Translations under genes and position numbers: made by a program | Shown here: positions 14,915 through 42,524 of the stretch, in pieces | Numbering within the stretch: position 1 is the first letter of the stretch | How the letters are laid out: each line of letters begins with the position of its first letter | Notes under the pieces: generated by a model | What the model was told of the DNA's origin: nothing | The model's database searches: none | Seen by the model: the letters and a program-made list of their open reading frames with translations, nothing else | From: Nemertoderma westbladi | Lineage: Eukaryota; Animalia; Xenacoelomorpha | Direction: 5' to 3' | Length of the DNA stretch: 43,142 nucleotides | Assembly (NCBI GenBank): GCA_032718475.1 | Contig: JAUCBJ010003659.1 | Span: forward strand, 1-43,142

Positions 14915-15036
14915 CAATAAACTGCTACTAAAATTAATTAACCAATAAACCAGCATACTTTGTATACTTATCAAATAGTAAAATAATTTATCTTAATTTC
15001 CTTTTAGGTTTTGGCTACCAAAATTCCTGGGTGTGA

Positions 15037-16790: not shown

Positions 16791-17563
16791 CTTGATTATA
16801 AGAACGTAAATCTATTATCATTGAACACTGCATTGAACACTTAACTCACCTTAATCAACTCATTTTACACCTAACTTGTCATTCTACTGAATCACCGCAT
16901 TGTTTTACTTCTGCTATTAATTGTTGTTATATTAATGGATATGGTTGTTATATTTGGAGAATACCGATAAATAATCATAAAACCCCCAATCTTCTTGATT
17001 ACTGAAGGTAAGAGGAACAGGTTTACCGTTAGCAACTACGACTTAAATTATAGTGGTTTTTGTGTGAATTAAATGCTATTTCATAATCCCTACATATGTC
17101 AGTTGCGATCCTCCTTATATATGATCAAATTCAGTGACGGTCGGCAGATTAGTGTGAAGTAGTGTGAAGTCGTGTGAAGTAGTGTGAAGGTAATAAAGCA
17201 TCTCCTAAAGAATGCGCTATTTACGAAACTCTGTGGCCATCTAGTTGTGATTAGTATAAGTCATAACTCTGTTTTTATACTTAAAGCGCCGCGTCCTAAA
17301 GGAACTGTTAATATTTCCCCGAAAGTAAATATATTGTCAGAGATTATATAGTAACGATCAATCGAATAATACAGTAGGTCTACACTGCAATAACTTCAAG
17401 GTATCCGAATCCAGTCTCCCAAAACCGTGGGTGATAGGGTGACTGGCTTCGTCTGATGTAACTTCAGTACATTAGGTAATTGTTAAATGCTAAAGTCGAT
17501 TTATAAATAAGAGGACAACTAAAATTGGCAGGTTAAACTGCTAAAGGTCTAAAAGCGCGAACA

Positions 17564-17612
17564 GTAATAGATTTTAAGTTTCTTTATTGCGCCGTAGGCA
17601 ATAAAGTCGAAT
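17564..17612 (+). promoter_or_regulatory. Non-canonical primer-binding site of C, complementary to own LTR
   Basis: GTAATAGATTT pairs with AAATCTATTAT (16808-18; 31499-509); no TGG next to the LTR. Confidence 0.55.
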
Positions 17613-19348: not shown

Positions 19349-22300
19349 ATGTCTGACACAAAGCAAACACTGTCAGATAGTCTCCTAGAAAGAACAATCT
19401 GTGACCAAGACAAGAGTATCGAACATCTCAGACCAAAGTCCAAGTCCCCTCCTACTGTAAGAAAGGTCATCCCTACAGTAGTAGTATCAGACCCTAGGCT
19501 AGTAAAGCACCATAGGTCTATTATAGGCACTAGGCTCAAGTTAAGCGGGACCAAGAGGCAGCTGTTAAACAGCAGCAGCACCCGAACCGAGAACTTATTT
19601 CTCAACGGCACGATAACTCTAGTAGTTCAGACACTGAAGAGTTGACGCCCGAGATCGGAGCAAGGATGGCAGAAGCGGTTTATCCAGATCCACTTCTAAT
19701 TCTTCCTGGAGCCATACTCACTAGAGTATTGATCGCTGTGGAGGAACATCAAATCGATTGGGCGAGAAGTAAGCGATCAACCAGGGACAGTTATGCGGGA
19801 TACACGATGGAGGAACTGAGGTCTATTGTCGAGACGCAATGGAACTTCCCCGGACCCGGACTCCCGTTCAACTTATTGGAAGCTGCCTGGGAGGACTTAT
19901 ATAGGATGGGAATAGTAAGGGACACTAGAGATCCAGCTGTATGGAAGAGGTCAGCAGCAGGATATGTCCAGGGATTCTTCAGCTCTTTAGAGTGATTAGA
20001 AGAACACTTATTTCAACAACGTCAAGGACCTCAAGAGCAGGGAGAGCTGCTTTATCAAGTGCGAGAACGAATCTTATGAATCAGATTAATACTTTCAGCC
20101 TTTGAGGAAGCCTCGAAGAGAAGCCAAGACACATCGTTGCAAGTGGCCGTAAAGACTTGGTTTCAATGGGTGAGTCTTAAAGTCCAGGGAACGACACGTC
20201 CAGGGAGAATCAACAGACGCTACCTTTTCTCAGGTGGAAGGCGAAGCTACATCCGAGAAACCTCAGAAGAAGGATGCTATTGACATCTATCTGTCGGACT
20301 ATCAACGATTTATAGGTGACAAAGAGCTAAGGAGACGGCTAGCTGGACTTCACCCTAATAGTGAGGGAGCCAAATTTGTGTTGGACTCGTTAGATGTGGA
20401 AATATTATCCGCAGAGCAGCAGATAAAGAAAAGGCAAATACAAGACCGAAGGTCAGCGGCCGCGGCAGAATCTGAAAGGAAAGCAGCAGCGGCAGAGGCT
20501 GAAAGAAAAGCGGCAGCGGCAGCGGCAGAATCTGAAAGAAAAGCGGCAGCGGCAGCAGCAGAATCTGAAAGGAAAGCGGCAGCGGCAGAGGCTGAAAGAA
20601 AAGCGGCAGTGGCAGAAGCAGAAAGATGAGCAGCTGAAGAGACAACCCAACTAGAGTTGGTAAATCTTCAAGCGAAGCAAGATTACTTAAATAAACAGAG
20701 AACAGCTACTCAGATGCAACTACTGAGTCGATCTACTCCCAGAAGACAGGGATTTACCTCCTCGGATGAAGGTGATACAACGGATCCCGAGGGAAGAGGT
20801 AGTAAATCTCGTTCGAGCGGACGTAGAAGAACGCCACACCGTCAGAAGTTACCAAATTTGCCTCCGGCGGTGAGAAGGCAACTAGCCAATGTAGATTTAA
20901 GTAATCCTGAGCCTACAGACCAAATTATTAGAGTAGACAGACTCCCTACTATAATAGACGAGCTCGAAATAATTAGGCCTGTCATTGAAGCCACTCCTGG
21001 GATAGAGACCCCTGTACTTCCAGAACCTAACTCTAAATTCCCTTTGCACAGTACTAAACTACCTGTGCCCAGTAGATAAGCCCCGGAACCACATCCGGTC
21101 CTGGACGCCGAGCAAGACATAAATGACTTGTCTCCCATCGTCCCTACGCGTCACCCCGCTACTATGTTGGCAGCTCACGCTTCAGCAGTTGAGTGGGTGG
21201 ACAAGGGACGGCGGGGGATGAATCGCCTGCTCGGGCAGCTGGAAGACCATAAACAAAGGTCTTCCCAGCAGGTCCGAGAGTTGGAAGGGACTGTTCAGCA
21301 GTTGAAGGGAACAGTAAGAGAGAGTAGGTTAGAGTTGCAAGAAGTACAGCAGAGTATCGCTGTAGAGCGCGATAAATTAGTAAATATACAAATGGGTATA
21401 CCACCACCCCCTGTAACAATGTGTCAACCCGTTAGGTCTGAAGTATTTCATGCGCAAGGTGTGGAGCCTACACGCATCTATACTGCTAGTGAAGTAGAAA
21501 CTCCTATAGTAAACCCTATTAAGGGTAATTATAAACCCGTTGTTAATGATATCCCATACAGATCTGATCATAATCTGAGAAATTTATATACCGATAACTC
21601 GATATTAAATAATACGATGGCTCAAGAAAGTTTTACACGTCAAATGGCTAGAACTGAGCCCGTCAAGCGGTAAAGGTGGGAGAGGTCGTCAAGTTCAATG
21701 GAGATGAGATGAAATGGTTACCTTTTAATGAATATTATAAAGATAACATACAGAACTCTGTACTATCTAACGGAGATAAACTTAGATTCCTCATCGAGTG
21801 CTTGGAAGGACCTCCCAAGTAAAGTTTATTGGACATCCAGACGGATTAAGACAAGTTTGGGATACACTAAACATCAGGTATGGTAATAGGACTAACATAG
21901 CTAGGTATTTGTATGCGAAATTAGTAGCGCCCCGAAAATTTCTTAGCAGCGGGATTATAGAGTTTTCCGATGAGATTCAGGAGATCTGTAGACAGCTAGA
22001 TTGGTTAGGTAAGTCTCAGGAATACCAGAGTTCTATGGTTGTTGGTGCCGTAGCATCTACTTTGCCAAAGGGTGGAGTAGGTACTCGCTGGGATAAAAGA
22101 GTTCTCTATATGATGGACCAGCAACAAAGAGACCCTACCATGGCTGATCTAATGTCATTCTTAAATGGAGAGGTAAGATTACAGCTCCTAAAGCAGTCCA
22201 GAGAGAAGACACCAGAAAGTAAGGTGAGTGAAAAACCCGTTTCTAGGAGAAAGGTAACACCAGTGTGTTATATGGACGATGGCGAAAGCCAAACCTCATA

Positions 22301-24035
22301 CGAGGAAAACAGCGGTAAGGACACCGAAAGATCTTATTATGTCAATAAATCGAGGAAAGACGTAAGTAAATCTAAGTCTCGAACCAGTGACAGGAGAGAA
22401 CAAGTAACAACTCCTCCTACATCTCCTAAGATAATTCATGGAAGAAAGCCCAAGGAAAGAAAAAGTGTGCACAACACAACACAGGTTAAAGTAAGTAACA
22501 TCAAGCCCAAATGTGTATTGTGCGACGGGCCACATTGCTTGAGTGGGTGTGATGAATTCTTGAAGAAATCCCTGAAGGATAGACGTGATGTCATGTGGGA
22601 TAAGCGGTTGTGTTATAATTGCCTCAGACGAGGACATCAAAGACGGACCTGTTACTCAGACGCGAGGTGTGCTAAGTGCGGCGCGAAACATCATATCTTG
22701 CTGCACACCGAATTTGACAGAACCCGCACGAGTCAGGTAAGTGAGCCCGAACTACATGTCCAATTCAGTGATGTGAACGACACTGACCACAGTTCTGAGA
22801 TGGAAGGATTCTGCACGGACGAATTCTCCAACGAAAATGAATCCTGTTATATGATAAACACCACAGTGTATCGAGCACTTGCGTACGAGATTGAATCGGA
22901 AGTGGAAAATCCTCGACTGACTATTCCGGACCAACAACCATCTTGGAAAGCGCCAACTTCCTCTGTCGGAATCCGGGAATTTCCTGTTGTGCAACTGAGA
23001 GTCCATGGGCTAGGGAAGAGCCTAATAGTAAATGCCCTCCTTGACTCCGGCAGCACAGGTACATTCATTGACAAAGATCTAGCCGAAGACATCTTTGCTG
23101 GACAACCCAAGTTCCGAACTAAGTTGAACCTTTCCGGAATTATGCAGGTTTGGAAATCCACAGTAGCCACAGATTACTACGTGGGTGCGTTGTCCACTCC
23201 CCAGGATGAACTAGGAGAACATAGTGTAAGGTCGGTCAAAATGGTGGCTATAAAGAACTTTGCTACTAGCCAAGTGGAACCTTACAACTGGGATGAAGAC
23301 CATTTTACCCAGCAACATGATATACCTAGATTTAACACCGATTACCCAGGGGTGCAGATATTAATCGGCCAAAATGTGCGCGACGAAGGCGCTATGAAGG
23401 TGCAAAACGAGGCGCTTGAAACATTAGAAAAACGGCCTGCTCGACCGCAACCATTGCAAACGTACGCGGGAAGAACGAGAGTAGGTTGGTACTTCACTGG
23501 CCCTTCCCGTAGAACCCTAATGGAAAGACTCCCTAATGAGAGAATACATCAGGTGGGTGAATGGGAAGAAGAAATCAGTGAGGGAGAAACCACAACTGAG
23601 GGAACCCCATACTCCTCAGACAATGACGATATTAACCAATTATACGATGAGGAAAATAGAATTGATCTCCTCGCCGAGAACCAAACTTGGTTAAACCAAG
23701 TCAACTTATGCCATCTCATCGATCAACATGGCGGACAATTCACATATAGCGATGAATTAAACGAAGTGATAGATCGATACAATAACAAAATCCATGATGA
23801 ACACGCCGTACGATTCTTTACTCAAGAAGCCGTAGAGCGTAATTCCTACGACAAAGCCTTGTCCGTCGAGGAAGAGAGAGCCAAGCAGATTCAGGAAACG
23901 ACTACCCGTTATCTGAAGGACGAAGGTCGCCGCTATGAGATTGGTCTTCCGTTCCGACGGCGAGAACTCAACTTTATAAATAACCGACCTTTAGCAGAAA
24001 AGAGAATCGCGCAACTACATCAGGAAAATGTATAA
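19349..24035 (+). pseudogene. gag: Element C gag-protease (stops and frameshifts)
   Basis: ATG 19349; same triple zinc knuckle and ALLDSGS as A; fragments 19349, 19642, 20234, 20657, 21128, 21798. Confidence 0.85.
20455..20627 (+). repeat. 27-30 bp coding minisatellite encoding (AAAAE[S/A]ERK)n, about 6 units
   Basis: GCAGCGGCAGA(A/G)(T/G)CTGAAAG(G/A)AAA repeats within gag. Confidence 0.9.
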
Positions 24036-27000
24036 AACCCAGCTGAAGAAATTTATCGATAAAGGATACGCGGAGCACGTACCGGAAGAAGCACCCATAA
24101 TGGAGATAATGTATTATCTAACACATCATTACGTTCTTAAGCCCGGTAAACCCAACGAAGTCCGGGTAGTGTTTGATTGCTCCGCCCTTTACATGGGTCA
24201 ATCCCTGAACTCAGAACTGTTGCCGGGACCCAACTTTCTCCAATCCTTGTTGGGAATATTATTAAGACTGCGGCAATATTCTATCGCATTCGCTTCGGAC
24301 ATAGAAGGCATGTTCTTACAAGTCAAGGTGCTGGATAGGGATCGAGACAGCCTACGATTTCTGTGGAGGCCTCAACCAAAAACTGGTGGAGTACTGGATG
24401 ACCATCCAAGCTTTCGGGATCATCTCGAGCCCCTCGAACACTTGTTCGGTAGTGCGTACCACTGCTGATGACAACCGAGACACCTTCTCTAAAGCTGTTA
24501 TTGACAACATCAAACGGGATATATACATGGACAACAATTTAAAGTCCCTCCCATCGGTGGAAGAAGCCATTGATGTTGCTAAGGGAACGGTAGAGTGCTT
24601 ACAATGCGGTGGATTTCGGCTAACCAAATTCACTAGTAACTCCCGTGAGTTTCTGGAATCGATCCCGGTAGAAGACCGAGGTGTTAAAGATCTGGACCTC
24701 ATCAAGGACGATCTTCCGGAAACCAAGACGCTTGGTTTAAAATGGGACACGGAGAGAGATATCTTGTTTTTCCAGTTAAAACAGCGAGATAATCCAGTTA
24801 GAACTAAACGGATTGGTCTAAGTATCCGAGAACTTATTTCGATCCATTGGGATTTATTAGCCCAGTTATATTGGTTGCTCGGAGCTAGGTGCAACAAATG
24901 TGGCTCGAAAACCACTCGTGGGATGATCCACTTAAGGGAGAACTACTAAAGAAGTGGATGAAATGGAAAGGTTCTCTACCATCCATCGAGAACTTTAAGA
25001 TTTCCTGTTCATATTTTGGTCACGTTCTCCCCACATATTCCTATCAACTCCATGTGTTTGGAGACGCCAGCGATATGGGAATAGGTATAGTAGCCTACCT
25101 GAGGGTTGAAACTCCGGATGGAATTAAAGTTGCCTTGGTCACCTCTAAGGCCTTGATAAACAACAAACTACGAGTTCCTCGAGCGGAGTTAAAGGCAGCT
25201 CTATACGCTACAGCCATCGGCCGGAATGTAACAGAACTGATCGACTATCCACTGGAGAAAACTGTCTATTGGACTGATGCTTTACTCGTTCTGGACATCT
25301 GGAGTATATAACAAATGAAGTCTGTCAGTTCAGCGTCTCCATTACCAACAGAGTAGCCATTATACTCAGTCGCTCTAATGTAGACATTGACCTGGGACAA
25401 TTAATCCAGCCGACATCGCCTCTAGAGGAGCAACCCCTCAAGAACTGATAGATACTCCAGACTGGTTAGGTGGACCCGACTTCCTAAGTAAAGAAGAGGA
25501 TGAATGGCCTCCTCATCTCACCACGGCTGAGATTAGACAAGCCAAGGGAGCGGAGAAAGTCAAACCTAAAACCTGGATGAGTAAATCAAAGTTATTTAAA
25601 CCCGTGATAGATCTGTCTGTACTACACACCTCCGGAGGCGATGCTGTGGATCTAAACTCCCCCACCACGAACAAATCTGTTATAGAAATCAGAGAAAGAG
25701 ACTGGAAATCTGGAACACCAGATGTCTCGCAAGGACTCTCACCTCTCCTGCAGAGAGCAATAAATCATTATAGCTCCTGGAATCAGCTTTGTAAGGCCGT
25801 TGTGTATCTTAAAAGATGTTTCCATCATCACTATTCCAGGACGAAGATCACAAGTGATACCGCTCCAATAATATCCGAAAAGGTCCATGCTATTAAAGAC
25901 CTTCCCGCTTATAAAGTGTCGGATAGGTTTCTGACAGAGAAGATCAGTTACCAAGAGCATGAGGATACCAATAAGCAGATACTGAGACTCCTGCAATGCT
26001 ACGAAGATTCCGATAAGTATTTCCTGTTGTTGAGAAATCCACAGATGCGCTTAAGGGATCGTTTCTCTAGCACAATGATAGATGGGTTACGTGTCGGAGG
26101 GAGATTAACTAATGCTCCTTTGTCCTTTGACACTAAATTTCCCACACTCATTAGAAATCTTGAAATACAAATCAAGATGATTGTAGATGTTCAGAGTAGG
26201 CTTTACCATGCTGGTAGAGAACGAGTTCTTAGCGAAATTCGAACTCGCTAATATTTCCATAAGCCCCGTAGAGCTCTGAACCAAGTTCTTAGGAACTGTA
26301 TACCCTGTAGGAAAGCATTCAGTAGGCCTTTAACACAGCGAGAGGCAGAATTACCTAGGGAACGAGTAAGCTTCTATGAACCACCCTTTACTAATATTGG
26401 TGTGGATTTATTTGGCCCTATTGAAGTATATCGTGCTAGGACTATAGTCAAGCGATGGTGTGTAATCTTTGTCTGTATGACTTGTAGAGCGATCCATCTA
26501 GATATGGTGAACGATCTATCTACCAACAGCTTCATACTGAGTTTACGCCAACAGATCGCTCGTTTTGGAACTAGCAACACCATGAGATCCGACAAAGGAA
26601 TGAACTTCATTGGCGCCAATAATGAGATCAAAGCTTACGTGATAGATTGGAACCAAAGACAGGTGGACGATCAGCTAAGGGTAACAGCATCTAGCTGGAC
26701 CTTCAACGCCGCCGACGCCCCTTGGTGGGGAGGAAGTTGGGAGAAATTAATACGGAGCGTGAAGACCGCATTTCACTTTATAGTGCGGTGCCGCGCGTAT
26801 CTCAACAACGAACTTTTGTGGACGTTAATGGAAGAAATCGCCGCCTATCTTAACGAGAGACCGCTTATGCCAGTCTCATCGAGTCCCGACTCCCTAGAAG
26901 CGCTGACACCCGCGCATTTCCTACTAAAGAAACCTGTAGCCATGGCAACAAACTTGGCAACTTATGCAGTTGTTGTCCCGTCGTTTCGCTGACCATTTTG

Positions 27001-27365
27001 AAAAACATTATCTTCCTACGCTACAACTTCGAACAAAGTGGTTTGCGCAGCAAGAAAACGTCAGCGCCGGAGACATGGTCCTTATTGTGGAATCAGATCT
27101 TCCACGAAAGCGGTGGCAGACAGGTCGTATCATCGAGACTCGTATATCCGATGATGGTTTAGTGCGATCGGTAGAACTCGTCGTCATGTGATGTAACTTT
27201 AAGAAACCTGGAATTGTATTCGAAACACAACAACTTAATCGCCCAGTTGGTCGTTTATGTTTACTGGAAAGAGACCGCGAGTTATCCGGAAACTATGGAA
27301 GGCAAGATACTCTTCCCACGACCACCTCCCTAATCCAACAAACATCTAGGGACTCCCCAACGTAA
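24028..27365 (+). pseudogene. pol: Element C RT, RNase H, integrase (disrupted)
   Basis: KPNEVRVVFDCS, DIEGMFLQV, YMDN (catalytic D to N), FGDAS, VPRAEL, WTDA, DLFGP, SDKGMNF, WEKLIRS, RPVGRLCLLE; stop at 27363-65. Confidence 0.92.
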
Positions 27366-28877
27366 CAGCGTTTGGAGTGGGTGTGTGACTACATTATTTG
27401 ATATTTTTTTTATTATTTTTATATTTATGTATGTATTATTACGTAATTTTATTATTATAATCGTTTTCTTTAATTTTATTTAGTAGAATAATTTTTTAGC
27501 GATTATTCAGTAGATTAATGCAATATATATTCGTGTTTATTACTTAATTACTTAGCATTATATATTTCGTTTAACGGCGAGAAATAATTCATTTTCTCTT
27601 TCCTTACTGTCCGTATCATACTATAAATACGTGACTACAGTAAGATGAAATGTCCGTACTTATTAAAGTACAATACCGCCCCTACTATACTGAAGTATTA
27701 TTGGTAAGTAGAGTATTAGGAATGCAAAGTTCAGATCCTCGTGTCTCGACTACACCAAGCTCTGGGTAGACCTTGGAAACGACTTGCCTCTTCTCACTGA
27801 CATTGCTTCTTGCAATATTGCTCTCATACGTCCCCAGACATGTTCTGGAATAAATCGGTGCTCATCTTAAATATTAAATATTTAATAAATATTTATAAAA
27901 TCTGTTAAAACAAATGTTATAATAGAGTAAATGATAACAAATTGACTCTAGAAAATCTATAAATCAAAAATCTGTTAAAATTTAGATCCTCTAAAATTCT
28001 AGTCGATTAAGATATCGTAGCACTTACCGATACTCTTAAAAAGACAAAATTCCTAGAATTAAGGATCCTAGTACCCAGACATGCTCTGGAATAAAATTGT
28101 GTCTATTTTAATATCAATGTTTATATATCAAATTTTGTCATTTTATACAATTTATAACATTCCCAAAATTCCATTAATTAATAGATCAAGGGAGCGGAGA
28201 TTCACCCTATTAAGTATATTAGTGTGCGAGAATCTCCAGTGTACAGTCAATAGCCAATAAAATTTATAAAATCATGTATAAAGGGGAATATTGACAATTA
28301 AAGAATTACTATTAAATAGCATCCCAGATCTGTATGCATGAGAATTACCCTAATTCTACTGCTAGATTTCCATAATGTCACCATAGCAACAACCACGCTA
28401 GAATTAGAAGCGAGTTAAAAGAACAATAGAAAGCTTGCCCCATTGAATAGCATGCGGAATAAATAGCACCCTGCTAGTATCCAGGGATACATAATAATAA
28501 CGTGGCATTCTGGAAGGCACTGACTAACGGACAAATGGCCCGAATGTGTACAATTTGTGACAGAAGTGTGGAATTTGTGTATTTATAGGTGAAGGTTACT
28601 ACTAAAGTGTGTTTACAGTAGCGAGTCGCAGTTGTGAAAGTTTCCCTGCCTCTGTAGCAAGAACCTCCAGTAATTCTAAGCCCTTGGGATGGACAGTGGA
28701 GTGACTCGCGCTGGTTATTGTTGTCGTTGTGTAGCTACTACGTTGGTGAGAGGCACAGCGACGACAGTACATCAGCGCTGAAGATCTTGCGCTGTCCGGG
28801 GGCATTGAGGGGGAGGCAGCGACGACCGCTGGCCTAAATATCATTAATTATAATATCGATAAACTCATATAGCAGCT

Positions 28878-31070
28878 ATGAAGATGCTATTAATAGAAGA
28901 TGATCTTGGTATCATGGAGCGATATACCCTACCATTGCAAGCGTTTGTTGATAGTTTAATAAGCGGCGACGCTAGTCAACCTACTACGGAGGACGATGGC
29001 CGTTATATCGAACCGCCAATTTCAAAGGAACAGCTCACGCGTGAATTGGACTATAGAAAATTCACCGCTCACTATACGCATCATAATGGTACGTATATGG
29101 ACTTCTTAACTACTGGTCATCCTATCGATTTACACGATACGGACGATGTAGACACTGAAAGGGAAATGATCCTATTTAAATATCATACCCAGCGGAGTCA
29201 GAATGATAAACTGAGAATCGAACATGAAGATTCTATTCGAAACCAACTCGAAAGAGAAGACGTTGAAGAACCGGATAAACGCAGTGACTTCAACGAATAT
29301 TTGGAATTCTTGAGAGAAACATATCTCAATGTAGCCAGTCAACAAAATCTAGAAACTTGATATCCTCAAGGTATACATCATAACCCTATGATAGAACTCA
29401 AATAACTCTATTTCACTATGATGTATCTCACCGCCGATCGACTGCTACCTGTTGTACCGGAAAGCTTCGAACAGATGGACGAATATTGTAAAACTGGAGA
29501 AAGATCACCAGCGTTTCCCCTACAAGACGTGCGTCTTTGGTATTATTGCGATGAATGCCCTAGACCCAACCAACAAACGGAAAGACATAAACATCCGCGG
29601 AGACGTTGCGCTAAACACAGTTTTACTCGCTATACTTACGGGAGTTTCGAGCGAAACCTGTTCGATGTATCACCCACGCACGCACGACTCAAACGATCCT
29701 TAAACAAACCTATGATCAGAGTTCCGGAATACTCGGTCAGACCTCCTCATTCCCTGGTGAGACCTCAGACTCTTGATCCTAATAGTATGACGGATCCTCC
29801 TGAGTTGTATTCATTGTTCAAAGATCTAGTGTTACCCAAACAATTAGTCGGTGGCACTCCGGTTGTGGGCTCCCTAGATATTCGCCCATCCTACCTAGGC
29901 GGATTGGGACGCAGACATCTAATATCGCCATTCAACCCATATAATCGTCCCGGTTTAACCCTGATACAACCCGTCACCGAGGTGGAGGAGAGCGTTGTAC
30001 GAAACGCGTTAGACGCTATTCAACAAAAGATCGGAAAAGGAACCTACGATTGTTTAGATAAACGTAAATTGCAGCAACAAGTCCAAGCGGTAAAAGAATT
30101 CGCTTTTCCTCAGTTCGATCGGGAAATCCAGAATCTCGAAGAAGATATCGAACTTGGACGAACCTATTCTCTACAAGAGTTTTTAGACGAACGCTTCCAA
30201 CGACAAGCGGAGGAAAATCAGCCCGAGGAGAAGCACATCGAAATGGATGAGAGAGAAGAAGCAGCTTTAGCCCAGCCAGAAGCTCAAATCCTTATGACTG
30301 ATCTCAATTCCAAAACCATTATTCATCCTTCAATGGTTCCCCATTTCGGAGACAAACTCTTTGCCACGGTACAACCACAACCGGTTGATATCAACTTAAG
30401 ATCTAGAGATATTATCGCTGACGCTCCTATGTTACAACGTCTGCCAATCGAGGCCGCTCGTGTCGATGGTATACTTGTTGAACCTCCGGATAATCGAGCG
30501 GATCTTGTCCATCGTATGGTACACGAGGTCAACCTACGCGCTAGACCTTTACCAAACTCATTTTATGGGATCGAAGACCATTCTTATTATGTCAATTTAA
30601 CTCAATATTATATGGTGAAACCGGAAGATCCTACGCACAGTTTAAAGTTTCTACCATTGATAAATCCCACGGTGACGCATCCAGAGCTACAAGAAGTTCA
30701 TAGACGACCATATGAATATAGAGCCCGAGAACGCGACTTGGAAAGAACCATCAAACCGAGGAAATTTCTCACTACTCACGGTCAACCTACCGCTCTCGTG
30801 CAAACGACTCGTCAGGGACCAGTAAGAGCTGAAGTCCTGAAACGCACTCTAAAGGTTGTTCTCCCTCGTTCCACTGAGGTTGATATCGATCAACCGGGTA
30901 CCTCGACCGGCGGATACACCGACCATAACCCTAAACCTTCCGATGCAATTGTATTGCACCCCTCACCCAGGAGTTATAGCCCTCATAGTAAAGTGGCCCG
31001 CCCCAAAGAGAAAAGGACTCTTACTAGCCTCAAAAAACTTCGTAAACGCCGTTCACGTAAGAAGGACTAA
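28878..31070 (+). pseudogene. Accessory ORF3 of C, unknown function (~730 codons, two in-frame stops; 29418-31070 open)
   Basis: ORFs 28878 and 29418 share a frame, separated by TGA 29358 and TAA 29403; homologue in A; CDEC-x9-HKH-x4-C-x2-H cluster; KKLRKRRSRKKD tail. Confidence 0.8.
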
Positions 31071-31147
31071 TAGTTTAGAGTATTTTTGTATTTTAGAAAC
31101 TGTGATTTTTATATTTTATAGACTTAAATCCCATTTTCTGGGAGCGG

Positions 31148-32277
31148 TGTAAAAGCTTTTGTGGACATAACAAGTCATTTTTCCGCAATGCGCAAAATAC
31201 TCTAAAATAGCCCTAAATTTATCCAACTACGCGACGGGAAGGAATTGGAGCTGGTGTGATGACATCTATCAGCTGATTCTTTGTGGACGTGGAATTTTTC
31301 TTTGTTCTGCCTCATTCAGCCAATCAGAGCATTTTTCCCTTTATGTCTGACAGAGGCCTATGGAAACCCGCGCAATGCATTACGGTCTTTGTTTACTATT
31401 TTTCTGAGCACCAGAACCACCTCGGAATCTTCTGTACTTCTGTGTAGAAGTTTCAGACTTTGGCCTAGAACATCAGATGGCCTTGATTATAAGATCGTAA
31501 ATCTATTATCATTGAACACTGCATTGAACACTTAACTCACCTTAATCAACTCATTTTACACCTAACTTGTCATTCTACTGAATCACCGCATTGTTTTACT
31601 TCTGTTATTAATTGTTGTTATATTAATGGATATGGTTGTTATATTTGGAGAATACCGATAAATAATCATAAAACCCCCAATCTTCTTGATTACTGAAGGT
31701 AAGAGGAACAGGTTTACCGGTAACAATTGCGACTTACATTATATTGGTTTTGTGTGAATTAAATGCTATTTCATTTCATAATCCCTACGTGTGTCAGTTA
31801 CGATCCCCCTTATATATGATCAAATTCAGTGACGGTCGGCAGATTAGTGTGAAGTAGTGTGAAGTAGTGTGAAGTCGTGTGAAGTAGTGTGAAGGATAAT
31901 AAAGCATCTCCTAAAGAATGCGCTATTTACGAAACTCTGTGGCCATCTAGTTGTGATTAGTATAAGTCATAACTCTGTTTTTATACTTAAAGCGCCACGT
32001 CCTAAAGGAACTGTTAATATTTCCTGAAAGTAAATATATTTGTCAGAGATTATATAGTAACGATCAATCGAATAATACAGTAGGTCTACACTGCAATAAC
32101 TCTCAAGGAATCCGAATCCAGTCTCCCAAAACCGTGGGTGAAAGGTAGCGCACAGACTGGCTTCGGCTGATGTAACTTCAGTACACTAGGTAATTGATAT
32201 AGGCTAAAGTCCATTTATAAACAAGAGGACAACTAAAATTGGCAGGTTAAACTGCTAAAGGTCTAAAAGCGCGAACA
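31148..32277 (+). repeat. 3' LTR of C (1130 bp)
   Basis: GGGAGCGG PPT then TGTAAAAG...GCGCGAACA; contains 5 copies of a 10-bp AGTGTGAAGT repeat (4 in the 5' LTR). Confidence 0.93.
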
Positions 32278-32335
32278 TACAGGGTACATTGTAAGGTCGA
32301 GCTTACAGGGTACATTGTAAACAATGTAATGTAGT
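32278..32335 (+). repeat. 58-bp remnant of target DNA (probably B's LTR) between C and D
   Basis: Continues the GTCGAGCTTA(T/C)AGGGTACATTGTAA duplication that begins at 15187; bounded by both TSDs. Confidence 0.75.
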
Positions 32336-32903
32336 TGTTAGCGAATTCAATTCCGCTAACCACCCCACAAAGTTAGCTTTAAGCAATATTGGGTGCACGA
32401 GGTTGATTGCCAATCAACCTCGTATCACTCCAATAAATGGGGACGAGAAACCCCAAAGGACACACACACAAAGGGGGTCAGAGGTTATACTTCCGAGAGA
32501 GAGAGAGTGACAGTAGTGAGGGGAGAACACTCCCAGAGAGATAGGAGGGCGAGAATTAGGTTATCAGCCAATGGGGGGCAGGCATCCGCTGAGTAATATG
32601 GCCAAACTAGAGCAGTATATTACCGGTCGGTGTATCACATTCATTTACTCAGTTAGTCAGTTCAGTTAGGGCAGAACGGTAACTCTTGTCACCGTCCACT
32701 GCCGCCATCATCATTCAACTACATTACCGGTACTCAACTATCACTTTAAGGCCAACTGGGCTTATACTTTATCATATATATTTATCCATACGTTACCAAC
32801 AATGGTCAGAACAACTCAATAATATCAGAACTCTTTTCACACACACGGCGGGGACGCATAAACAAGATAACCGGATAAATCGGGATTCTCGGATCCCGTT
32901 ACA
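32336..32903 (+). repeat. 5' LTR of D
   Basis: TG...CA; about 14 substitutions (counted by eye) versus 41616-42183; CCAAT, TATA-like GTATATTA and clustered TCAGT Inr-like motifs at 32649-32667. Confidence 0.96.
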
Positions 32904-32946
32904 GTGACAAGAGCCGTAGTAATAAGAACTTATCTGCCCTAAGTGA
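32904..32946 (+). promoter_or_regulatory. Non-canonical primer-binding site of D, complementary to own LTR 32662-32692
   Basis: GTGACAAGAG/CTCTTGTCAC (10 bp) + CCGT/ACGG (4 bp) + TCTGCCCTAAGTGA/TCAGTTAGGGCAGA (13 of 14). Confidence 0.75.
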
Positions 32947-33023
32947 TAAGAACCAGCAGCTGGCCGATACCGCGATACGATAAGACACCCGAAACTAACT
33001 GTAACTGCCAGCCATCGATAAAG

Positions 33024-36000
33024 ATGAGTCGAGAAGGAGAGATGACACCGCCGCGGACCCCGGACGGCGAACTAACAATCCGCGAGGCCGCGACGCAACG
33101 GTACCGACCCACGACGCCGGATCCGTCGACCATAGGCGATCCGGCAATCCAAATGGAGGGGGGCCATCTACAGCGAGACGACGAGTCGAGAGAGGAGAGA
33201 GACGAGTCGACACACGATGGTGATCGACGTGCCGATGTCGCCGGCCAGCCAAAGGCCGAGGGCGACGGACGGCCCACCGGAACGGCGACGGTGGGGCCGC
33301 CGGTACGCCGCCGGATACGGAGGGATAGAGGAGACGTCGGCGACGAGGACGTCGGGAGAGAGCGAGAGGGATTGCCACCGAACTGTTTGAACTGTGGGAA
33401 TGCAGGGGTATGGAGCCTAATAATAATAATAATAATACAGTAGAGAACGCTAATATTAATAGTACTGTAGTGGATAATCCTAATCAAACTTTCATTGCAG
33501 GAAATAATATTTTATCTGATAGTAGTAATTTAAATCTGAACGGTTTCAATATAAATGTAGGAAATAACTCAAATAATCTGAACCAGAATTTGCAAAATAA
33601 TTCAAATAGTATAATTACGCAAAATAATTTAATTGACGATTCAAATAATATAATTACACAAAATAACTCAAATAATATAATCACGCAAAATAATTTAATT
33701 AATTTGGAAAGTAACACTGATGGTGGTGCTATTAATATAAACGCGGCAAGCCCGGGCGGCCCGGCAAATGAGGGCCTGGTAGGCCATGTAGTTAGTAGGC
33801 AGGAAGGGGCGGGGTTGAGTCAACCCAATGAGGGCCTGGTAGGCCACGTAGTTTAGTTAGTAGGCAGGAAGTGGCGGGCCTGGTAGGCCACACGGTAGTA
33901 GAGGGAGAGGTGGGGGTGAATAGACCCAGCCGCAGTAGGGTTAGTGTGTCGACTAGAGAGGGGTGTAGAAGCGAAGTGAGAGATAGTGAAGTGACAGGTG
34001 GCGAGGGGGGGGCTACAGGAGCCCCACAACGAGAGATTAGCGGCGAGAGGGGGGGGGGGGCAAAGAGTGTCCCACAAGCGTCGGCGGATAATGCGCGGGG
34101 CAAATTAGGTGAACCGCAGCACCCGGCGATGGAGAATAGTAGGGGGGTTATGAGTATCCCCAGCGACGTGCGATCGAGCAGAGAGAGACAGGTTGACGTC
34201 GCGAGAGGGCGAGCAATGAGACGTTGAGCCTGATCAGAAGAGGGAAAAAGAACAGTGGAGTTTAACCGGGAGGTCGACGAGAGATCTCATGACCGGGGAT
34301 ACTGCACTACAGAGAGAAGAGGGGAAGAGGGTAGAAGAAGTGTCGTTGCGAACGACAGGAGAGTGAGGACGGATAGCGAGCCGTCGGTAGTAGAGATGGA
34401 GACGGAGAGTCAGTGGGGTCGAACTCTGGGAGATTGCCGTCGCCCCGGGGAGACGCGACCTGACGAGGCGTACTACGCGCAGAGAGAGGGGTACAGGATG
34501 TACCGGTACGAGGACGAGAACAGTAGAGGGGATCGAAGAGAAACTTCCCGGCGGGATATACCTGCCGATCGAGACTACGGTAGCCGCGGGGAGGATTATT
34601 CGAGAAGGTTAAACTTTGATCCCGAGCGACACATACAGACTGCAGGACATACTGTAGGCCTTACTGCACATACCATAGGCCATGCTGGGAGAGATAATGT
34701 AGGATAGCGCGGACAACGGGATTAAACCCGGAAGTTGCGGAGTATATACCGGCAGGTAGGCCAGAAGTAGGTAGGCCTATACCGGTACCAACACAGCAGT
34801 ATGACTACAGCATGCAAGGACATAACATATATCCAGGGGAGGGGAGAGTTATTGCGGATAGGTGCATGGGCCCCAATATATTAACATCAACCCCAGTATC
34901 AAACATACCGGTGGGGGGTGGGGACAGTGTGACATTCCCCTATCACAATACCCACAATATACCCCAATAGGAACAAGAACATCGAACCCTTTGGACGAGA
35001 ATAGATCATGGGACACCGAAATATGGAGGGGGCCGCTACCCCCGATGATATATCCAAGCCAAAGGAAGGCAGCGAATAAGACGAACGGGCCGCACCCAAC
35101 AGGAGAATCTATACAACATCCATCGAACCCATTGGAAGCACAAGCCATGGGAATGGCCACATTAATTGATGCATTAAAAACTAGGATCGAGTTACCACCC
35201 GTGGAACCACTCAAATTTGATGGAAGTAGGCCGGAAGAATACCTGCAGTTTCGGCGAATGTATAGCAATGAGATACTAACGAAGAATTTGACACAAGCGG
35301 AGTGCCTAAAGTATCTGCAAGTGTATACAGGAGGCCCAGCATACGACATCGTGAGGCAATACCAGGGCATCGAGGGTGGCTTCACGACAGCATGGCAGGC
35401 ACTAGACAGGGAATACGGGCACCCGGCCAAGATCATCCGGCAAACCCTAAGAGGTATAACATCGGGTGGCCTACAGGATAACCCGTTAGCATAAAGACAT
35501 TTGCTAACAAAGAAAGCGCTAATCGTGCTAAAGACGCTGGACGCGCCATATGAACTTAACGCATCCAATAACATCACCACGATAGCGCAGGCACTGTCGA
35601 TGTGGTTGCGCAACAAGTGGAGGAAGATCGCTTTCTCCACTCGAGACAGGAAGGGTGCGGAACCGGGTTTAGAAGAGATGTCGAGCTTCTTGAACTATGA
35701 AGCCGAATTAATAACAGACCCAGTCTATAGCGAGGATAGCCTGGGAAAGGGACCAAAGACTGATTACCACAGGCCGAAACCAGAACACAACGCGTCGAAC
35801 GCATTGCCAAAGCTCAGACAGTCACTGCCGTACGCGGCAACGCAGGGGACTGCTATTCCACAAGTAGCCGGGGGTAAGACCACATCATGGAGTGGACAGG
35901 GGAAAAATAACAACACAAATAAACATAACCCCAGCACGCCCAGTAGGCCGAACCCAAGCAATAAGAACAGTAGGGACTTTGGTACGAACGCAAGTGCGAT

Positions 36001-36180
36001 ATGCAGTGCACTGTATAAGGACGGCTACAACCCGAAGAGCAAATGCCAATTACATACAAATGCACTTCATCAGACCATGAACTGCAGGTACTGGCAAGCA
36101 CTACCCAGGGAAGATCAGGTAGAATACGCGAGAAGAAATGAAATCTGTTCGCGATGTGTGATGAGTGGACATGTGACGAG
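33024..36180 (+). pseudogene. gag: Element D gag (frameshifted)
   Basis: ELPPVEPLKFDG..LKYLQVYTGG..AWQALDREYGHP, YEAELITDPVYS, knuckle CSRCVMSGH truncated by deletion. Confidence 0.85.
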
Positions 36181-37895
36181 GGGCGTGGCACGCCACACTT
36201 TCTTGAAGAAGGAAGTATTGTGGCAGCATGGGCCGCAATTTCTGAACGATAAGACAGCCTGGCCGCCGATGAGAAAGGTGGACCCGGGCTCAGGGGAAGT
36301 GACATTAGAGGAAGAGGAGGGAGATTCAGAGGGTAAAGAGATATATAGCCAAATGGTGAGGGAGATAAGGGACATGCAACCAAAACCGGAAGAACTGTGC
36401 GATAACCCGACGGACAAACTCCTTAGCTACAGCCTAGTTGGTACAAGACCAAGAAGTTAGTGGCATACTGGAGAGCCTTCGGGGATTTCCTCAAGGGAGT
36501 CGGCAAAGACATAAAAATTAGAACAACCATCGATCTGGAGGGAGCGGCCAAGGCCGTCATCCGCTATGAACAGAAAAAGAATTACGGCGACGAGGTGGAA
36601 CGCGTCGGTAAACAACAGCATCTCCGACGGGACAGTGAGCTGATCGCGCTGTCGCCACAACTCAATGATGACGGGATCTTAGTAATGAACTCTAGGGTGT
36701 TGAACAACAACAGTATCACCATTCCGCCAAAGCCCATCATCATCCCTAATGGATCGCCGATAGTCCACCAGATTATCTGGGACTCCCAAAGTCGATATTG
36801 CATGGGGGCACCAACTGGACCCTCATGGAGATACGAAGGACCTTTTGGGTCAAACAGTTGAGGAAGAAGGTAAAGGCGGTAGTGGGGCAGTGCCAGACCT
36901 GCCGACGAATGAAAAAGGAGCGAGCCATACAGGAGATGGCGCCACTACCGGCCAGTAGGGTGAGACAGCACGACCCGCCATTCACGCACTGCGGTGTGGA
37001 TATGTTCGGGCCGATAAAGGTTAAGGTGATGCGACACACGGAGAAACGCTACGGAATTATCTTTGTATGCAACAATACGCAGGCGGTAGGGATAGAACTC
37101 GCCCAAGATGCAACAGCATCTGCATTCATCAATGCCCTAGAAAGGTTCAGAGACCGCAAAGGTGGGACGATCGCAGTAATATACTCCGACAACGGAACCA
37201 ACTTTGTGGGGGCGGAGAACGAGATGGCAGAGGCCTTGGATATCCTGGAAGGGGAGGAAGTCAGGGCAGCCATGAGAAGACGACAGGTGAAGTGGGAGAG
37301 GAGGACGCCGTATGCTCCGCATACTCTAGGATGCGTTGAGAGACTCGTGGGTAGTTCAAAGCATCTAATGACGAAGTTGATGAACACCCACATGGTAACA
37401 GAGGACGTACTGAGGACGGTACTAGCAAAGTGTGAGGGTATCATTAATAGCAGACCGCTATATCCAGAAAATGATGACCCAGAGTCATTAGATGTGCTGA
37501 CACCCAGTCACTTTCTAATGGAAAGGCCGGAAACCATCAACATGCGGGGTGTAGACCCAGACGATATACACTCCCGACAGAGTTGGAAAGTCGCTAAGGC
37601 GATAAGTGCAGAGTACTGGAGGAGGTGGGTCGAGGAATATCTACCCACGCTTCATAGGAGAAGCAAGTGGAGAGATACAAACAGGGAGTTAAAGGAAGGT
37701 GATCTGGTGATCGTCACGGACGATACCATCATCAACAACCAGTGGCGGTTGGCGAGAGTTGTGGGGACTTACTCCGATGAGGACGGAAGAGTCTGATCGG
37801 TAGAAGTGCGGATAGGTGGTAAGATAGAAGCGAAAGATAGAAAGACCTACCGAAGGGCTGTAGGAAAGTGTTGCCTGCTAGAGGGCGCACCTTAG
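36181..37895 (+). pseudogene. pol: Element D tether/integrase
   Basis: LWQHGPQFL, HGG..CQTC, VDMFGP, SDNGTNF, VERLVG, RRAVGKCCLLE; stop 37893-95. Confidence 0.92.
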
Positions 37896-37967
37896 TCGAG
37901 TTGAGTTTAGTCGTCCAAGTTTTGGACTGAGGGGGTGGGATTGAGGGCGAGACGCCCTTCCTACACA

Positions 37968-38006
37968 TAAAAATAAAAAAAATAAATAAATAAATAAATA
38001 AATAAA
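37968..38006 (+). repeat. (AAAT)n microsatellite
   Basis: Seen directly. Confidence 0.85.
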
Positions 38007-38017
38007 GAGTAAGTAGG

Positions 38018-38400
38018 CAGATAGTTAGATAGTTAGTTAAGTAGTAAGAGGGTACATAGTACCGCTAGTTAGATAGTTAGTTAGTAGTAAGAGGGTACGT
38101 AGTACCATTAGTTAGATAGTTAGTTAGTAGTTAGAGGGTACGTAGTACTGTTAGTCAGATAGTTAGTTAGTAGTTAGAGGGTACGTAGTACCATTAGTTA
38201 GTTAGTAAGAGTTAGTAGTAAGAGGGTACGTAGTACCGTTAGTTAGTTAGTAAGAGTTAGTAGTAAGAGGGTATGTAGTACCGTTAGTTGAGAGAGAGTT
38301 AGAGGTTAGTAAGAGGGTATGTAGTACCAGTTAGTAAGAGTTAGTGGAGTTAAAAGTTAGTAAGAGGGTACGTAGTACCAGTTAGTAAGAGTTAGTGGTA
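38018..38400 (+). repeat. Tandem array of 8 units (43-51 bp) with hairpin core GGTAC-GTA-GTACC
   Basis: Cores at 38051, 38094, 38137, 38180, 38225, 38270, 38316, 38367; TAG-rich linkers. Confidence 0.92.
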
Positions 38401-38822
38401 GAAGGGTATATATAATATAAATATTAGTTAGTAGTGAGTAGCGAGAGGGGGGCATGTGAGTACAGCTGGATAAATCGTGTAGGCCACGCGACCCATACTG
38501 TTGTACTGCACAAGCCCACAAACTAGGCCAGAATGTGGATTATAGAATAGAATAATCCATTGGCGGAATAAGTAGTAGCACAGTAGTAGGATTGAATTAA
38601 ATTAAAAAATAAAATAAAAGGCAGAAATTAGACAAATTATGGTAACAGTAGGAGAAATATTCTGGAACATAATTAAAGTAACGGACAAAATTGCAAAATT
38701 TAGAACAATTTGGTAGTTTAGAAAATTAGTTAGGAAAATTAGGCTATAACTTAGGTTTCTGGGAGAAGTAGGCCATTATCGAACTGAATAAACCATCCTA
38801 ACGTTATCACTCATCTGTACAG

Positions 38823-40914
38823 CGCCTTGGCAAGGCACCACCTTACAGGTGAGCGGGTGAGAGAGTTCGAAATGGCGGAGAAACTGGTCAGAAAGAGAAA
38901 GGCGGAGTTAGGAGGAAAGGAGATACTGATGGATTTAACCGAGAGGCATCCGGAAGAAAAGACGAGGGAATACTACGAGCGGTTAGAGAGAGGTCACAAA
39001 GCGCGAGTGCTACAGGACCATTTCAGGGAGGTGCACGAACAGCGGCTGGTTGGGACCTATGGGACGCCATCGCTGGACAACGCGATTCGGGATTCTGAAG
39101 TACGCGAAGGAGCCACCGAGAAAGGATTGGAAGAGGTTCATAGAGTCAGTCAGCAGGGGAGGATACATGGTCCTAGACGATGAGGGGACCGTGGAAGACG
39201 AGGAAGGTTCGAGAAGAGGATCGGCCAGGACCATACTCTTACATTTGGCCATGCCAAATGGGGACATTTTCCTATTCGACCTGGGAACGTATGGGAAGAA
39301 GAACGGGCCGAAGTTGAACCAGTTGCCAAAGGCGGTGCAAACCCTAGTGAGAGAGAAGTCAACAGGATCGGCGATCCGGTGATCGGCGTGGGATCGGCGA
39401 TCCGCGACGATGCGGAGAGAATCATCGGTCTGGACACCCCCAACCTCCTGGACATGCAGACGGTCTACATGGCTATGACAGCACCAGACGGGTTGGGACT
39501 AGTGGAGAACTCAGTCCATTGTGGAGCGGTGGCGATGGGCCAGCTAGTGGGGCTCGTGTGTCACAAACCAATGGACTGGAGTAAGTTCAGAGAGGAGTAC
39601 GGAGCGGAGTTGGCAAACTCGCTGAAGTGGGGAGCGAGGCCAGGGAAACAAGAGGTGTATCAATTCCGGAGAGGAGCGATAAAGGTATATCAGAAGCGAT
39701 ATATCCTGCAGGAGGACTGGATAATGATGGGTTTGCTTAACCTATTCATGACCGTGGTTATCGAAAGGGAACCAACGGCATTCCTATTATCGGGATCACC
39801 CCTGAACTACAGAAGAGCCTTCAAGACGGCTTTCGAGGGTCTAGTAGACCACCCGGGGCTGAAGGGCGAGTCGGTGTACTATAACTGCCGACATCTGGTA
39901 GACGGGGAGGTGGATACACCGTATCAGAGATGGGAGCAGCTAGAGGCGGATAGACGAGAAGCGAAGCGATTGGAAGAAATCGCTAGACAGGAAAGGAGAG
40001 AGGCAGAGGAAAGGGAGGAAGAAGCTAGAGCGCAGAGCTACGGCTTCGAGGAACAGGCGGCCTTAGACGAACTTCATTGGACGTCATCACGGAGTTCGGG
40101 GGAGTCTCTAGGGCGAGAATTAGGGTGGACGGTGGGATCACCAAAACAGTCGACATCGGATTGCAGACGACTCCCATACCAGCGGGCGGCGAGGGCGATC
40201 GCCCGCTAAGGAGGCTAGGGGAGCTGGAAGGATGGAAAGTCACGGGCGAGAGCCAAGGTGGGAAGGAACGCAGTGGGTCCACCGGGATACTGGGGTTGGA
40301 GCCACTCCCAGAGGAGGACGAGGATGACGACGAGTTCGGAGAGATGCTGCCCATCGGGAGAATCGGCCACTCGGACACGGACTGGGTTGGCGGGAGGGTG
40401 GTGACGGCCAGTGGGGCAAGGGCCTTCTGGGATAGACCCCGCAAGCGGGCCTGTGTGCATGAGGAGCCGGCGATGGATTTCGCGGGGAGCACCATCAGGT
40501 TGGGCGAGCAACCGGGAACGGCACCACAGGTAGTATTCGGGGAGACGATGCCCAGGAGGGGCGAGGAGATAGATGTGGACAGGGACGCTAACGTCCAAAA
40601 GTTCGCTTACCAGCGACTCCACAGACTGCGGAGATCGCTTGGGACGAAAGGCGATGAAAGTGATCCTATGGGACGCCACCAGGGGGAGACAACAGGGCCA
40701 CTCGGAGGGGCCGCCCGCTAAGAGATACCGGGAGCTAATAACACCAGCGCCCAAGGAGTCGACGACCGGGATTAGTAGAGAGGTGACAGCGAGGGTCAGG
40801 AGCCTGAAGGGAGATAAGACCAAGGGAGCGGCAGCGGCCAGGAAACGACCAAGGGAGGAGGAAGACAGAGGGAAAGAGTTGAGGTGGTTCCCAAAGTCAG
40901 GTGGAACGAACTAA
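38823..40914 (+). pseudogene. Accessory ORF3 of D: DEDDy 3'-5' exonuclease (WRN/Mut-7/EXD-like) domain, coiled coil, basic tail
   Basis: MVLDDEG (Exo I), LLHLAMPNGDIFLFDL, LPKAVQTLVREKSTVIGVGSAIRDD (Exo II, after removing a 14-bp duplication), NLLDMQ, QKRYILQED (Exo III-like); frameshifts ~39050, ~39370, ~40075, ~40715. Confidence 0.72.
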
Positions 40915-41606
40915 GACTTCGATGTGGCATGCCTGGAAGGCACCACCTGAGACGTGCGAACTCCTAAGTACAAATTCAAATAATTTAAATAATTTAAAAG
41001 TGCAATTAGTATGTACGTATGTAACAATCATTAGTTTAGCAAGAAAATATAATCAAAGTAAATACTATAGTCATATAACATTTTTCCAATTAGCTACTGG
41101 GACTGGGGACCAATTGACTATGACAAACGAGATGCTGGACGACTTCACACTTCTTGAGTGCGACGGCACAGGGAGGGGGGTGAGACTCGTCAGGAGTAAG
41201 CGGGCTGAGATGGGGGTTGAGTGATAGCGTGGAGAGAGTGTGGGTGCAATTCAAGTGTGGGGGGGGGGAGAGGCAAGAGGCAGAACAAGGGACAAGGAGG
41301 TCTGAGAGATAGGGTGAGAGGATGCTTAGAGTCAGTTAAGTGCGGGGTTAGAGTGGTGAAAGTGTTGGGGAAACAAAAGTTGTGTGAGAGAAGCGCACGA
41401 TCGGCCCGACACGGGACGCCAGATGTCTTGGTGCAAGATAGGTAAAGTTGTACCAAGACGGGGTAGTGATATCATACCCATAGGGAGCGGCCTGGAAAGC
41501 CGGCTCCGAAAAAATAACTCCACCCCACACCCGATGGTAGATCGGGATCCAGCGGAATTGTAGCGCACTGAAGGTGGATGCTATCTTCTCACCGGGAATA
41601 TAGCAT

Positions 41607-41615
41607 GGGGGGGAG
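41607..41615 (+). promoter_or_regulatory. Polypurine tract of D
   Basis: GGGGGGGAG directly before the LTR TG. Confidence 0.85.
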
Positions 41616-42183
41616 TGTCAGCAAATTCAATTCCGCTAACCACCCCACAAAGTTAGCTTTAAGCAATATTGGGAGCACGAGGTTGATTGCCAATCAACCT
41701 CGTATCACCCCAATAAATGGGGACGAGAAACCCCAAAGGACACACACACAAAGGGGGTCAGAGGTTATACTTCCGAGAGAGAGAGAGTGACAGTAGTGAG
41801 GGGAGAACACTCCCAGAGAGATGGGAGGGCGAGAATTAGGTTATCAGCCAATGGGGGGCAGGCATCCGCTGAGTAATATGGCCAAACTAGAGCAGTATAT
41901 TACCGGTCGGTGTATCACATTCATTTACTCAGTTAGTCAGTTCAGTTAGGGCAGAACGGTAACTCTTGTCACCGTCCACTGCCGCCATCATCATTCAACT
42001 ATATTACCGGTACTCAACTATCACTTTATTGCCAACTGTGCTTATACTTTATTATATATATTTATACATACGTTACCAACAATGGTCAGAGCAACTCAAT
42101 AATATCAGAACTCTTTTCACACACACGGCGGGGACGCGTAAACAAGATAACCGGATAAATCGGGATTCTCGGATCCCGTCACA
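41616..42183 (+). repeat. 3' LTR of D
   Basis: 568 bp, near-identical to 32336-32903. Confidence 0.96.
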
Positions 42184-42524
42184 GTAGTGGTGTAATTCAT
42201 AAGTATTTTGAATTTATTCACCCTACAGTAGTTACTCTAACTAATCTATCACCACACTCCTAACAACCTAATCTATAATCCTAAATCATTGTGTCATAAT
42301 TGTTTATCGTTTCCTATTTACATAGTGTCCTTAAGATCAGATATATTATAAACAATTTTAACTTAATTTTACAAAATTGACGACACATTATTTGGATATT
42401 ACACGTATCTTAACTTCGTCAAATACATTACTGAACAAATTACCTTCCTTAAGTATTGTATTAATAATGTTAATCTTTGACCTTCAATGACCCTTTAGAT
42501 ACCAAGGAGCTTCTTATCTCCTTT

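Follow-up and report, generated by a model that had tools for sequence, protein, structure and literature searches.

Predicted self-priming in a non-autonomous BEL/Pao element and its relatives

Introduction

In the LTR retrotransposon Tf1, the 11 bases at the start of the element's own RNA function as the primer of reverse transcription, with RNase H cutting between bases 11 and 12, as described in the available portions of PMC7175516, PMC4600332 and PMC5341516. Self-priming is predicted also for Tcn1 and for the TAR lineage of copia elements, according to the accessible part of PMC6317226. In the case of BEL/Pao elements, the ICTV profile of the Belpaoviridae describes a host tRNA as primer, tRNA-Arg or tRNA-Gly, with a complementary site of 18 nt (PMC8742986). 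Among surveys of this group, the accessible text of PMC3118150 makes no mention of primer, PBS or tRNA, that of PMC554778 none of PBS or tRNA, that of PMC6238403 none of primer, tRNA or intron, and that of PMC13524379 none of self-priming; the available portions of PMC6934838, PMC3601003, PMC3286476 and PMC5443660 likewise contain nothing on BEL/Pao self-priming. Within the accessible literature, a scope with Repbase reports and most subscription journals outside it, no published report of self-priming in BEL/Pao elements was found. Here we analyze a BEL/Pao element, D, for which a sequence-only reading had proposed priming by the element's own RNA, and compare its 5′ end with those of its relatives.

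Results

A nest of four BEL/Pao elements

The window, meaning the whole stretch of Nemertoderma westbladi DNA that was analyzed (43,142 nt, positions 1-43142), is a nest of four BEL/Pao elements, referred to as A, B, C and D. A extends up to 6777 and has its RT region deleted, B occupies about 6778-15198 with no LTR pair seen, C spans 15200-32277 and is ~80% like A, and D spans 32336-42183; the insertions of C and D lie ~55 nt apart, within a short tandem duplication. The features of D, together with the pairing segments of C, are collected in Table 1.

D is a non-autonomous, recently inserted BEL/Pao element. Its two LTRs, of 568 nt each, carry 14 differences (2.5% divergence), and this low divergence, together with the target duplication, indicates that the insertion was clean and recent. 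Structurally, D has the TG...CA LTRs, target-site duplication, polypurine tract, DUF1759 Gag and integrase with DUF5641 that are expected of a BEL/Pao element; the Pfam families detected (DUF1759, integrase zinc finger, rve and DUF5641, with the integrase last) are BEL/Pao-specific, and the Ty3/gypsy polyprotein that characterizes the Tf1/sushi group is absent. What D lacks from the BEL/Pao description is the 18-nt site for a host tRNA 3′ end and the protease, RT and RNase H, which are present in the neighbors B and C and in relatives: nothing in D matches residues ~660-1530 of the intact relatives' polyproteins, and a YxDD motif, looked for in D, is not present. Without an RT, D is unable to act alone. 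Its homologues show 35-44% identity among the 120 listed. The extra open frames of D are unrelated to the long extra frames that C and A also carry between integrase and 3′ LTR (29406-31067), which have no Pfam family and are ~50% alike between C and A. Moreover, a tandem array of 43-nt units follows the D integrase (37997-38400), and the D U3 contains a perfect 13-bp inverted repeat with a 1-nt spacer (32387-32435), kept in both LTRs.

Table 1. Features of element D and pairing segments of element C, in window coordinates
Feature	Position	Strand	Evidence or remark
Target-site duplication, 5 bp	left 32331..32335, right 42184-42188	.	identical 5-mers on both flanks
5′ LTR of D, 568 nt, TG...CA	32336..32903	+	97.5% identity to 41616-42183
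AATAAA upstream of presumed promoter	32432..32437	+	sequence; the 3′ LTR copy (41712), if used, would end RNA before R
CCAAT (32568-72) and weak TATA-like box (32616-21)	32568..32621	+	sequence
Repeated TCAGT motifs, Inr-like and equally splice-acceptor-like	32641..32669	+	sequence
Weak fourth pairing block, 8 bp, partner 32994-33001	32650..32657	+	probability 0.01-0.78 depending on folding window
Helix 3, LTR side, pairing 13/14 with 32933-32946; extension particular to D	32662..32675	+	pairing and folding
Helix 2, LTR side, 4 pairs to 32914-32917, then 3-nt bulge	32676..32679	+	pairing and folding
Predicted self-primer core; AC 3′ end = predicted priming end	32683..32692	+	10/10 Watson-Crick with 32904-32913; same geometry in relatives
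Predicted minus-strand strong-stop DNA template, 211 nt, with poly(A) hexamers of variant form only	32693..32903	+	inference
Primer-binding site without TGG, adjoining LTR	32904..32913	+	sequence
Leader arms of helices 2 and 3, 15-nt loop between	32914..32946	+	folding
Broken gag region (DUF1759)	34862..36457	+	Pfam
Integrase and DUF5641, broken close to end	36750..37889	+	Pfam; homologue comparison
Extra open frames of D, between integrase and 3′ LTR	38788..40718	+	no Pfam family
Polypurine tract of D	41600..41615	+	just before 3′ LTR
3′ LTR of D	41616..42183	+	pairing segment same as in 5′ LTR, zero differences
C primer-binding site without TGG	17564..17574	+	11/11 pairs (10 Watson-Crick and terminal G-U) with own LTR; 15/2000 shuffles
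C predicted self-primer core in 3′ LTR; 5′ LTR copy 16808-16818	31499..31509	+	complementarity, present in both LTRs

Pairing between the leader of D and its own LTR

The end of the D 5′ LTR at 32903 is set independently of the pairing, by the LTR pair and the 5-bp target duplication, and no TGG follows it nearby, as the sequence-only reading had noted: the first one stands at 32961, 58 nt away. The ten bases that adjoin the LTR are the exact complement of an internal LTR segment, the next-best LTR site offering only 4 pairs, and the exact 10-mer was present in 9 of 20,000 shuffled LTRs. Both stretches of complementarity described earlier are present, 32904-17 with 32676-92 as 10 + 4 pairs around the bulge, and 32933-46 with 32662-75 beyond the loop. 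The D duplex has an energy of -39.9 kcal/mol vs -25.9 ± 2.6 in shuffles, with 0/300 dinucleotide shuffles as low, and the fold z-score is -3.9. When the LTR and leader RNA are folded, a check that the same reading had proposed, the three helices have predicted pair probabilities of 0.95-0.99 for RNA starts from 32643 to 32664, and helices 1 and 3 retain 0.97-0.99 for starts from 32336 to 32600. The pairing also stops at the LTR boundary, as had been stated, since two extra pairs into the LTR end that are possible on paper have a predicted probability of 0.00. Pairing between the leader and sequence upstream of 32649 differed with every folding window and was set aside. In a search for a hidden intron, 3 of 10 donor-acceptor joints lowered the duplex energy (-48 to -51 vs -44 kcal/mol unspliced), values obtained without a null, and none of these three lay at the primer core.

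D thus has a site 0-5 nt after its 5′ LTR that is complementary to at least 10 nt of that LTR, and no tRNA site, the combination by which Tf1-type elements are recognized. The geometry fits a primer, because the two bases that immediately follow the LTR pair with the AC at 32691-92 and extension would consequently copy the last base of the LTR first. As regards the transcription start, the proposed Inr-like motif and the CCAAT and TATA-like boxes upstream of it are indeed there, but TCAGT occurs three times (32649, 32657 and 32662) and is equally acceptor-like, with five splice-acceptor-like sites in the same stretch, and the TATA-like box is not canonical; a canonical box (TATA[AT]A[AT]) was sought in the D LTR and none was found. 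Meanwhile, the AATAAA of D lies 251 nt upstream of the predicted primer, with only variant hexamers downstream, and this arrangement is the chief objection to the self-priming model in D itself.

Element C belongs to a different family from D, and its 5′ LTR is likewise followed by GT and no TGG. Its site pairs with its own LTR through letters that differ from those of D, and its predicted primer ends in a G-U pair. The C 5′ LTR is split at 15285-16788 by an insertion with a minus-strand reverse transcriptase fragment (RVT_1), probably a LINE piece, and the long leader of C contains a tandem array of 27/33-nt units (20427-20650). The LTRs of C and A share a strong splice-donor-like site (31699 and 6228, respectively), which in C lies downstream of the predicted primer; splicing from this site into the leader would delete the primer site. 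In B, which has no LTR pair within the window, a candidate LTR end (7105-7130) is followed by GT and no TGG, and the candidate site at 7114 has no self-match longer than 6 nt in the four LTR pieces considered. A search for tRNA genes covering the window and 60 of the first 81 loci described below found none, and the Rfam search of 31000-34000 gave no match near any family threshold.

Self-matching sites in related elements

Relatives were gathered through an integrase alignment, which yielded 80 metagenome loci and one locus from a viral collection (81 in total); the viral contigs searched yielded no BEL/Pao locus but a single distant element, L001, whose site is of the TGG type. The 5′ ends of these relatives are of two kinds, ordinary TGG sites vs non-TGG sites, and the complement of the latter often appears only once a GT...AG segment is taken out of the LTR. 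The scored set comprised 27 elements (25 of the first 81 loci, D and C), the unscored loci having a missing LTR or leader, repeating a scored family, or being of the TGG type with too little LTR. The score was the longest Watson-Crick run beginning 0-5 nt past the LTR end, either contiguous or over a donor-acceptor joint. Fixed LTR ends were used in place of a scan over all CA positions, which was too permissive, and in 19 of the 27 elements they were set by eye with the sequence already seen.

Among the 20 elements that lack a TGG at 8 nt or less from the LTR end, 17 form 10-16 pairs with LTR sequence of their own, and no more than 2 of 100 shuffles equal each match. Twelve of these matches appear only when a predicted GT-AG junction in the LTR is spanned (unspliced best 5-9), and 5 are contiguous; the predicted LTR introns of the junction type measure 37-426 nt, and 3-7 nt of the second exon are paired. 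Examples of the predicted junctions are L002 2700-2796, L018 2086-2156 and L046 2759-3184. By contrast, none of the seven TGG elements, the ambiguous L027 and the distant L001 among them, exceeds 7 pairs. The three non-TGG elements that fail the fixed rule are L022 (7 pairs), L041 (6) and L072 (6): by eye, L022 reaches 11 with a weak acceptor and L041 reaches 12 starting 7 nt out, while the LTR of L072 is incomplete. A control in which shifted leader windows reached at least 10 in 6 of 28 rows, taking the best of 10 windows each, counts against this result, as do the LTR ends set by eye. When primer-binding sites were compared with foreign LTRs, 5 of 702 pairs reached 10, four of them involving L006, and non-self matches were mostly 4-7 nt, the background level.

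The first ten bases of the primer-binding site differ in 16 of 17 sites, and therefore no single tRNA can serve all; only the first two positions are near-constant (G in 16/17, T in 17/17). The complement varies with each element's own LTR across families, as is characteristic of Tf1-type elements. The pairing beyond the core does not behave as a clade trait: just two of the 17 elements, D and L080, beat shuffles at p<0.05 (combined p 0.05). The proposal of a ~31-nt bipartite primer identical to the RNA 5′ end is hence not established, the conserved part being a helix of 10-16 bp.

Individual relatives show further variation. In L035, the 5′ LTR (1-326) has an acceptor-like site where the 3′ LTR (6694-7103), 88% alike, has a joined, intron-less primer, which reflects either the loss of an intron inside a single family or chimerism of the contig. 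The predicted primer junction of L063 (181-217) has a 37-nt intron with a GTTTGT donor, L080 (6355 to 82) has a 16-nt junction-spanning match that contains AATAAA itself with 23 nt left to the LTR end, and the LTRs of L029, L040 and L092 end in ATA or AAA rather than CA.

Held-out loci, tree and processing signals

The same pairing scan was applied to a held-out set of 21 loci (L082-L102), five of which have an LTR end fixed by an LTR pair. All four held-out non-TGG loci passed, L083, L092 and L094 with 11, 14 and 11 pairs across junctions and L087 with 11 contiguous pairs, each with 0 of 100 shuffles; L087 and L094 gave 7 and 8 with the first LTR piece and 11 each after the LTR piece was corrected. 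The TGG-type L091 failed with 4 pairs. L095 was dropped because its repeat is a tandem array, and 14 other loci lacked a definable LTR end; L084, whose LTR end is not fixed, was not counted (the best of 36 CA positions gives 11 across a junction). These 21 loci sit in records filed as bacterial or archaeal genomes and most likely represent host DNA binned or assembled into them.

Beside D, the core self-match is found, with other letters, in 20 further elements (16 scored and 4 held-out). An unrooted tree built by quick search from 44 rows of RNase H-integrase sequence separates 9 rows of the tRNA type from 19 of the self type by a single change with SH-aLRT 95, L022 and L041 being typed by eye; gain and loss of the self type are indistinguishable on this unrooted tree, and D and C sit on long branches that make their position unsure. 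The suggestion of self-priming in BEL/Pao elements accordingly gains support, since the self-match recurs in different letters, is exclusive of tRNA-type sites and lies on one side of the tree.

A poly(A) site downstream of the pairing site is expected, because R must extend past the cut for strand transfer. Of 21 elements, 13 have a canonical hexamer (AATAAA/ATTAAA) in the LTR portion that begins at the pairing site, and 3, including D, have one upstream of it. Three of the 21 elements carry a canonical TATA box, at a distance of 122-243 nt upstream of the site or junction where pairing occurs; the primer would then be a long 5′ piece of the RNA with nothing but its 3′ end paired. This points away from the short 5′-end primer first proposed.

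Discussion

A model for priming in D and its relatives

We consider it probable that a piece cut from D's own RNA, and not a host tRNA, primes its reverse transcription, and Tf1-like self-priming is likely in this BEL/Pao branch, both judged from sequence. RNA from the D 5′ LTR would fold so that 32683-92 pairs with 32904-13; a reverse transcriptase supplied in trans by an intact relative would cut after 32692 with its RNase H, as in Tf1; and the freed AC-3′ end would prime minus-strand DNA over 32903-32693 (211 nt), followed by transfer to the 3′ R. In most relatives, the paired end of the primer is predicted to form only after the LTR intron has been spliced out. Such an intron would survive through the 3′ LTR copy, since all of the RNA 5′ of the cut would serve as primer and escape copying. 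Occasional splicing of the 3′ LTR copy would give rise to intron-less forms such as D, C, L010, L029, L087 and the 3′ LTR of L035; D and C carry the predicted primer ready-made. The primer itself may comprise more of the RNA's 5′ part, with the pairing at its 3′ end. Helices 2-3 of D are an element-specific extension, possibly a relic of copying deeper into the primer; if copying ran the primer's full length, the start would lie near 32662. With somewhat less assurance, we lean towards a broader scenario in which a large animal BEL/Pao branch has replaced tRNA priming by a spliceosome-assembled self-primer across an LTR intron, splicing licenses reverse transcription, D and C are intron-less by way of a spliced 3′ LTR copy, and the D duplex has been extended to ~28 bp.

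Alternative explanations differ in how much of this evidence they accommodate. The pairing could be a structural or regulatory RNA element, acting in packaging, dimerization or as a translation or splicing switch like the retroviral U5-leader stem, while some other nucleic acid primes; the D pairing is long and nested, exceeding the needs of a primer, and the canonical AATAAA could place the pairing site in U5. Against this, the helix measures 10-16 bp in 21 elements, begins 0-5 nt from the LTR end with a near-constant GT and is absent from 8 of 8 TGG-bearing elements scored, nor does structure alone need to replace a tRNA site; we regard a purely structural role as unlikely. Less probable still is that the same LTR sequence primes in trans, from the second RNA of a dimer or from a short 3′- or solo-LTR transcript, or that it is cut by a host nuclease instead of RNase H. 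Priming in cis and in trans cannot be told apart by sequence, and the relatives' primers would be long spliced fragments, unlike the 11 nt of Tf1; however, the intramolecular fold is predicted at 0.97, and the known case acts in cis and depends on RNase H, according to the available part of PMC7175516.

The remaining readings invoke a tRNA fragment or chance. Priming of D by a tRNA half or fragment, of the kind used by the Osser, Bryco and Bianca copia lineages, seems to us quite improbable: the site varies freely among families yet tracks each element's own LTR. The anticodon loop of tRNA-Asp(GUC) would presumably pair with the first six bases of the D site, although six pairs are the background level. 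Half-tRNA primers are known and need no TGG, but the accessible part of PMC6317226 reports such priming for Ty1/copia only. That the match arose by chance, or as a one-off fold-back duplication in a dead copy, is close to negligible. D is defective and a single copy here, and its extended helices are not common to its relatives; nonetheless, the rarity of the 10-mer in shuffled LTRs and the core match in the 20 other elements leave the chance reading largely refuted for the core helix, and the recent, clean insertion speaks against a dead copy.

The definition of the Belpaoviridae has a host tRNA as primer; self-priming by a whole branch would place this route in each of the three superfamilies of LTR retrotransposons and offer an animal system for a mechanism so far demonstrated in fission yeast only. 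A splice-completed primer would tie reverse transcription to RNA processing and would explain how LTR introns persist through an RNA intermediate. Self-priming would also free the elements from control by host tRNAs and tRNA fragments, and would explain why annotation based on the PBS would miss or down-rank them; the self-match provides a simple rule for predicting LTR ends and splice junctions.

Comparison with known systems

With the Belpaoviridae (Semotivirus), D shares DUF1759, an integrase with DUF5641, LTRs in the range of 0.2-1.2 kb, a polypurine tract and a 5-bp target duplication, whereas the tRNA site of that family is absent from D, from C and from one side of the tree, and is carried by 9 relatives on the other side. 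The TAR lineage (Houba, Osr-1) of plant Ty1/copia elements, in which self-priming is predicted by the same rule, a match of at least 10 nt with the site 0-5 nt after the LTR, differs in superfamily and in its plant hosts, and the accessible part of PMC6317226 does not mention a splice-built primer. D resembles Tf1/Tf2 of Schizosaccharomyces pombe, Tj1, the Tf1/sushi group and the Tcn1 clade, as far as the available portions of the sources describe them, in having no tRNA site and in that ~11 nt of its own LTR RNA would pair beside the LTR. Unlike Tf1/sushi and Tcn1, which are Ty3/gypsy chromoviruses, D has BEL/Pao domains and belongs to a different superfamily. Its sequence and those of its relatives likely represent Tf1-type self-priming, now in a third superfamily and mostly with a splice-built primer, with D as an intron-less, non-autonomous example that has an unusually long duplex.
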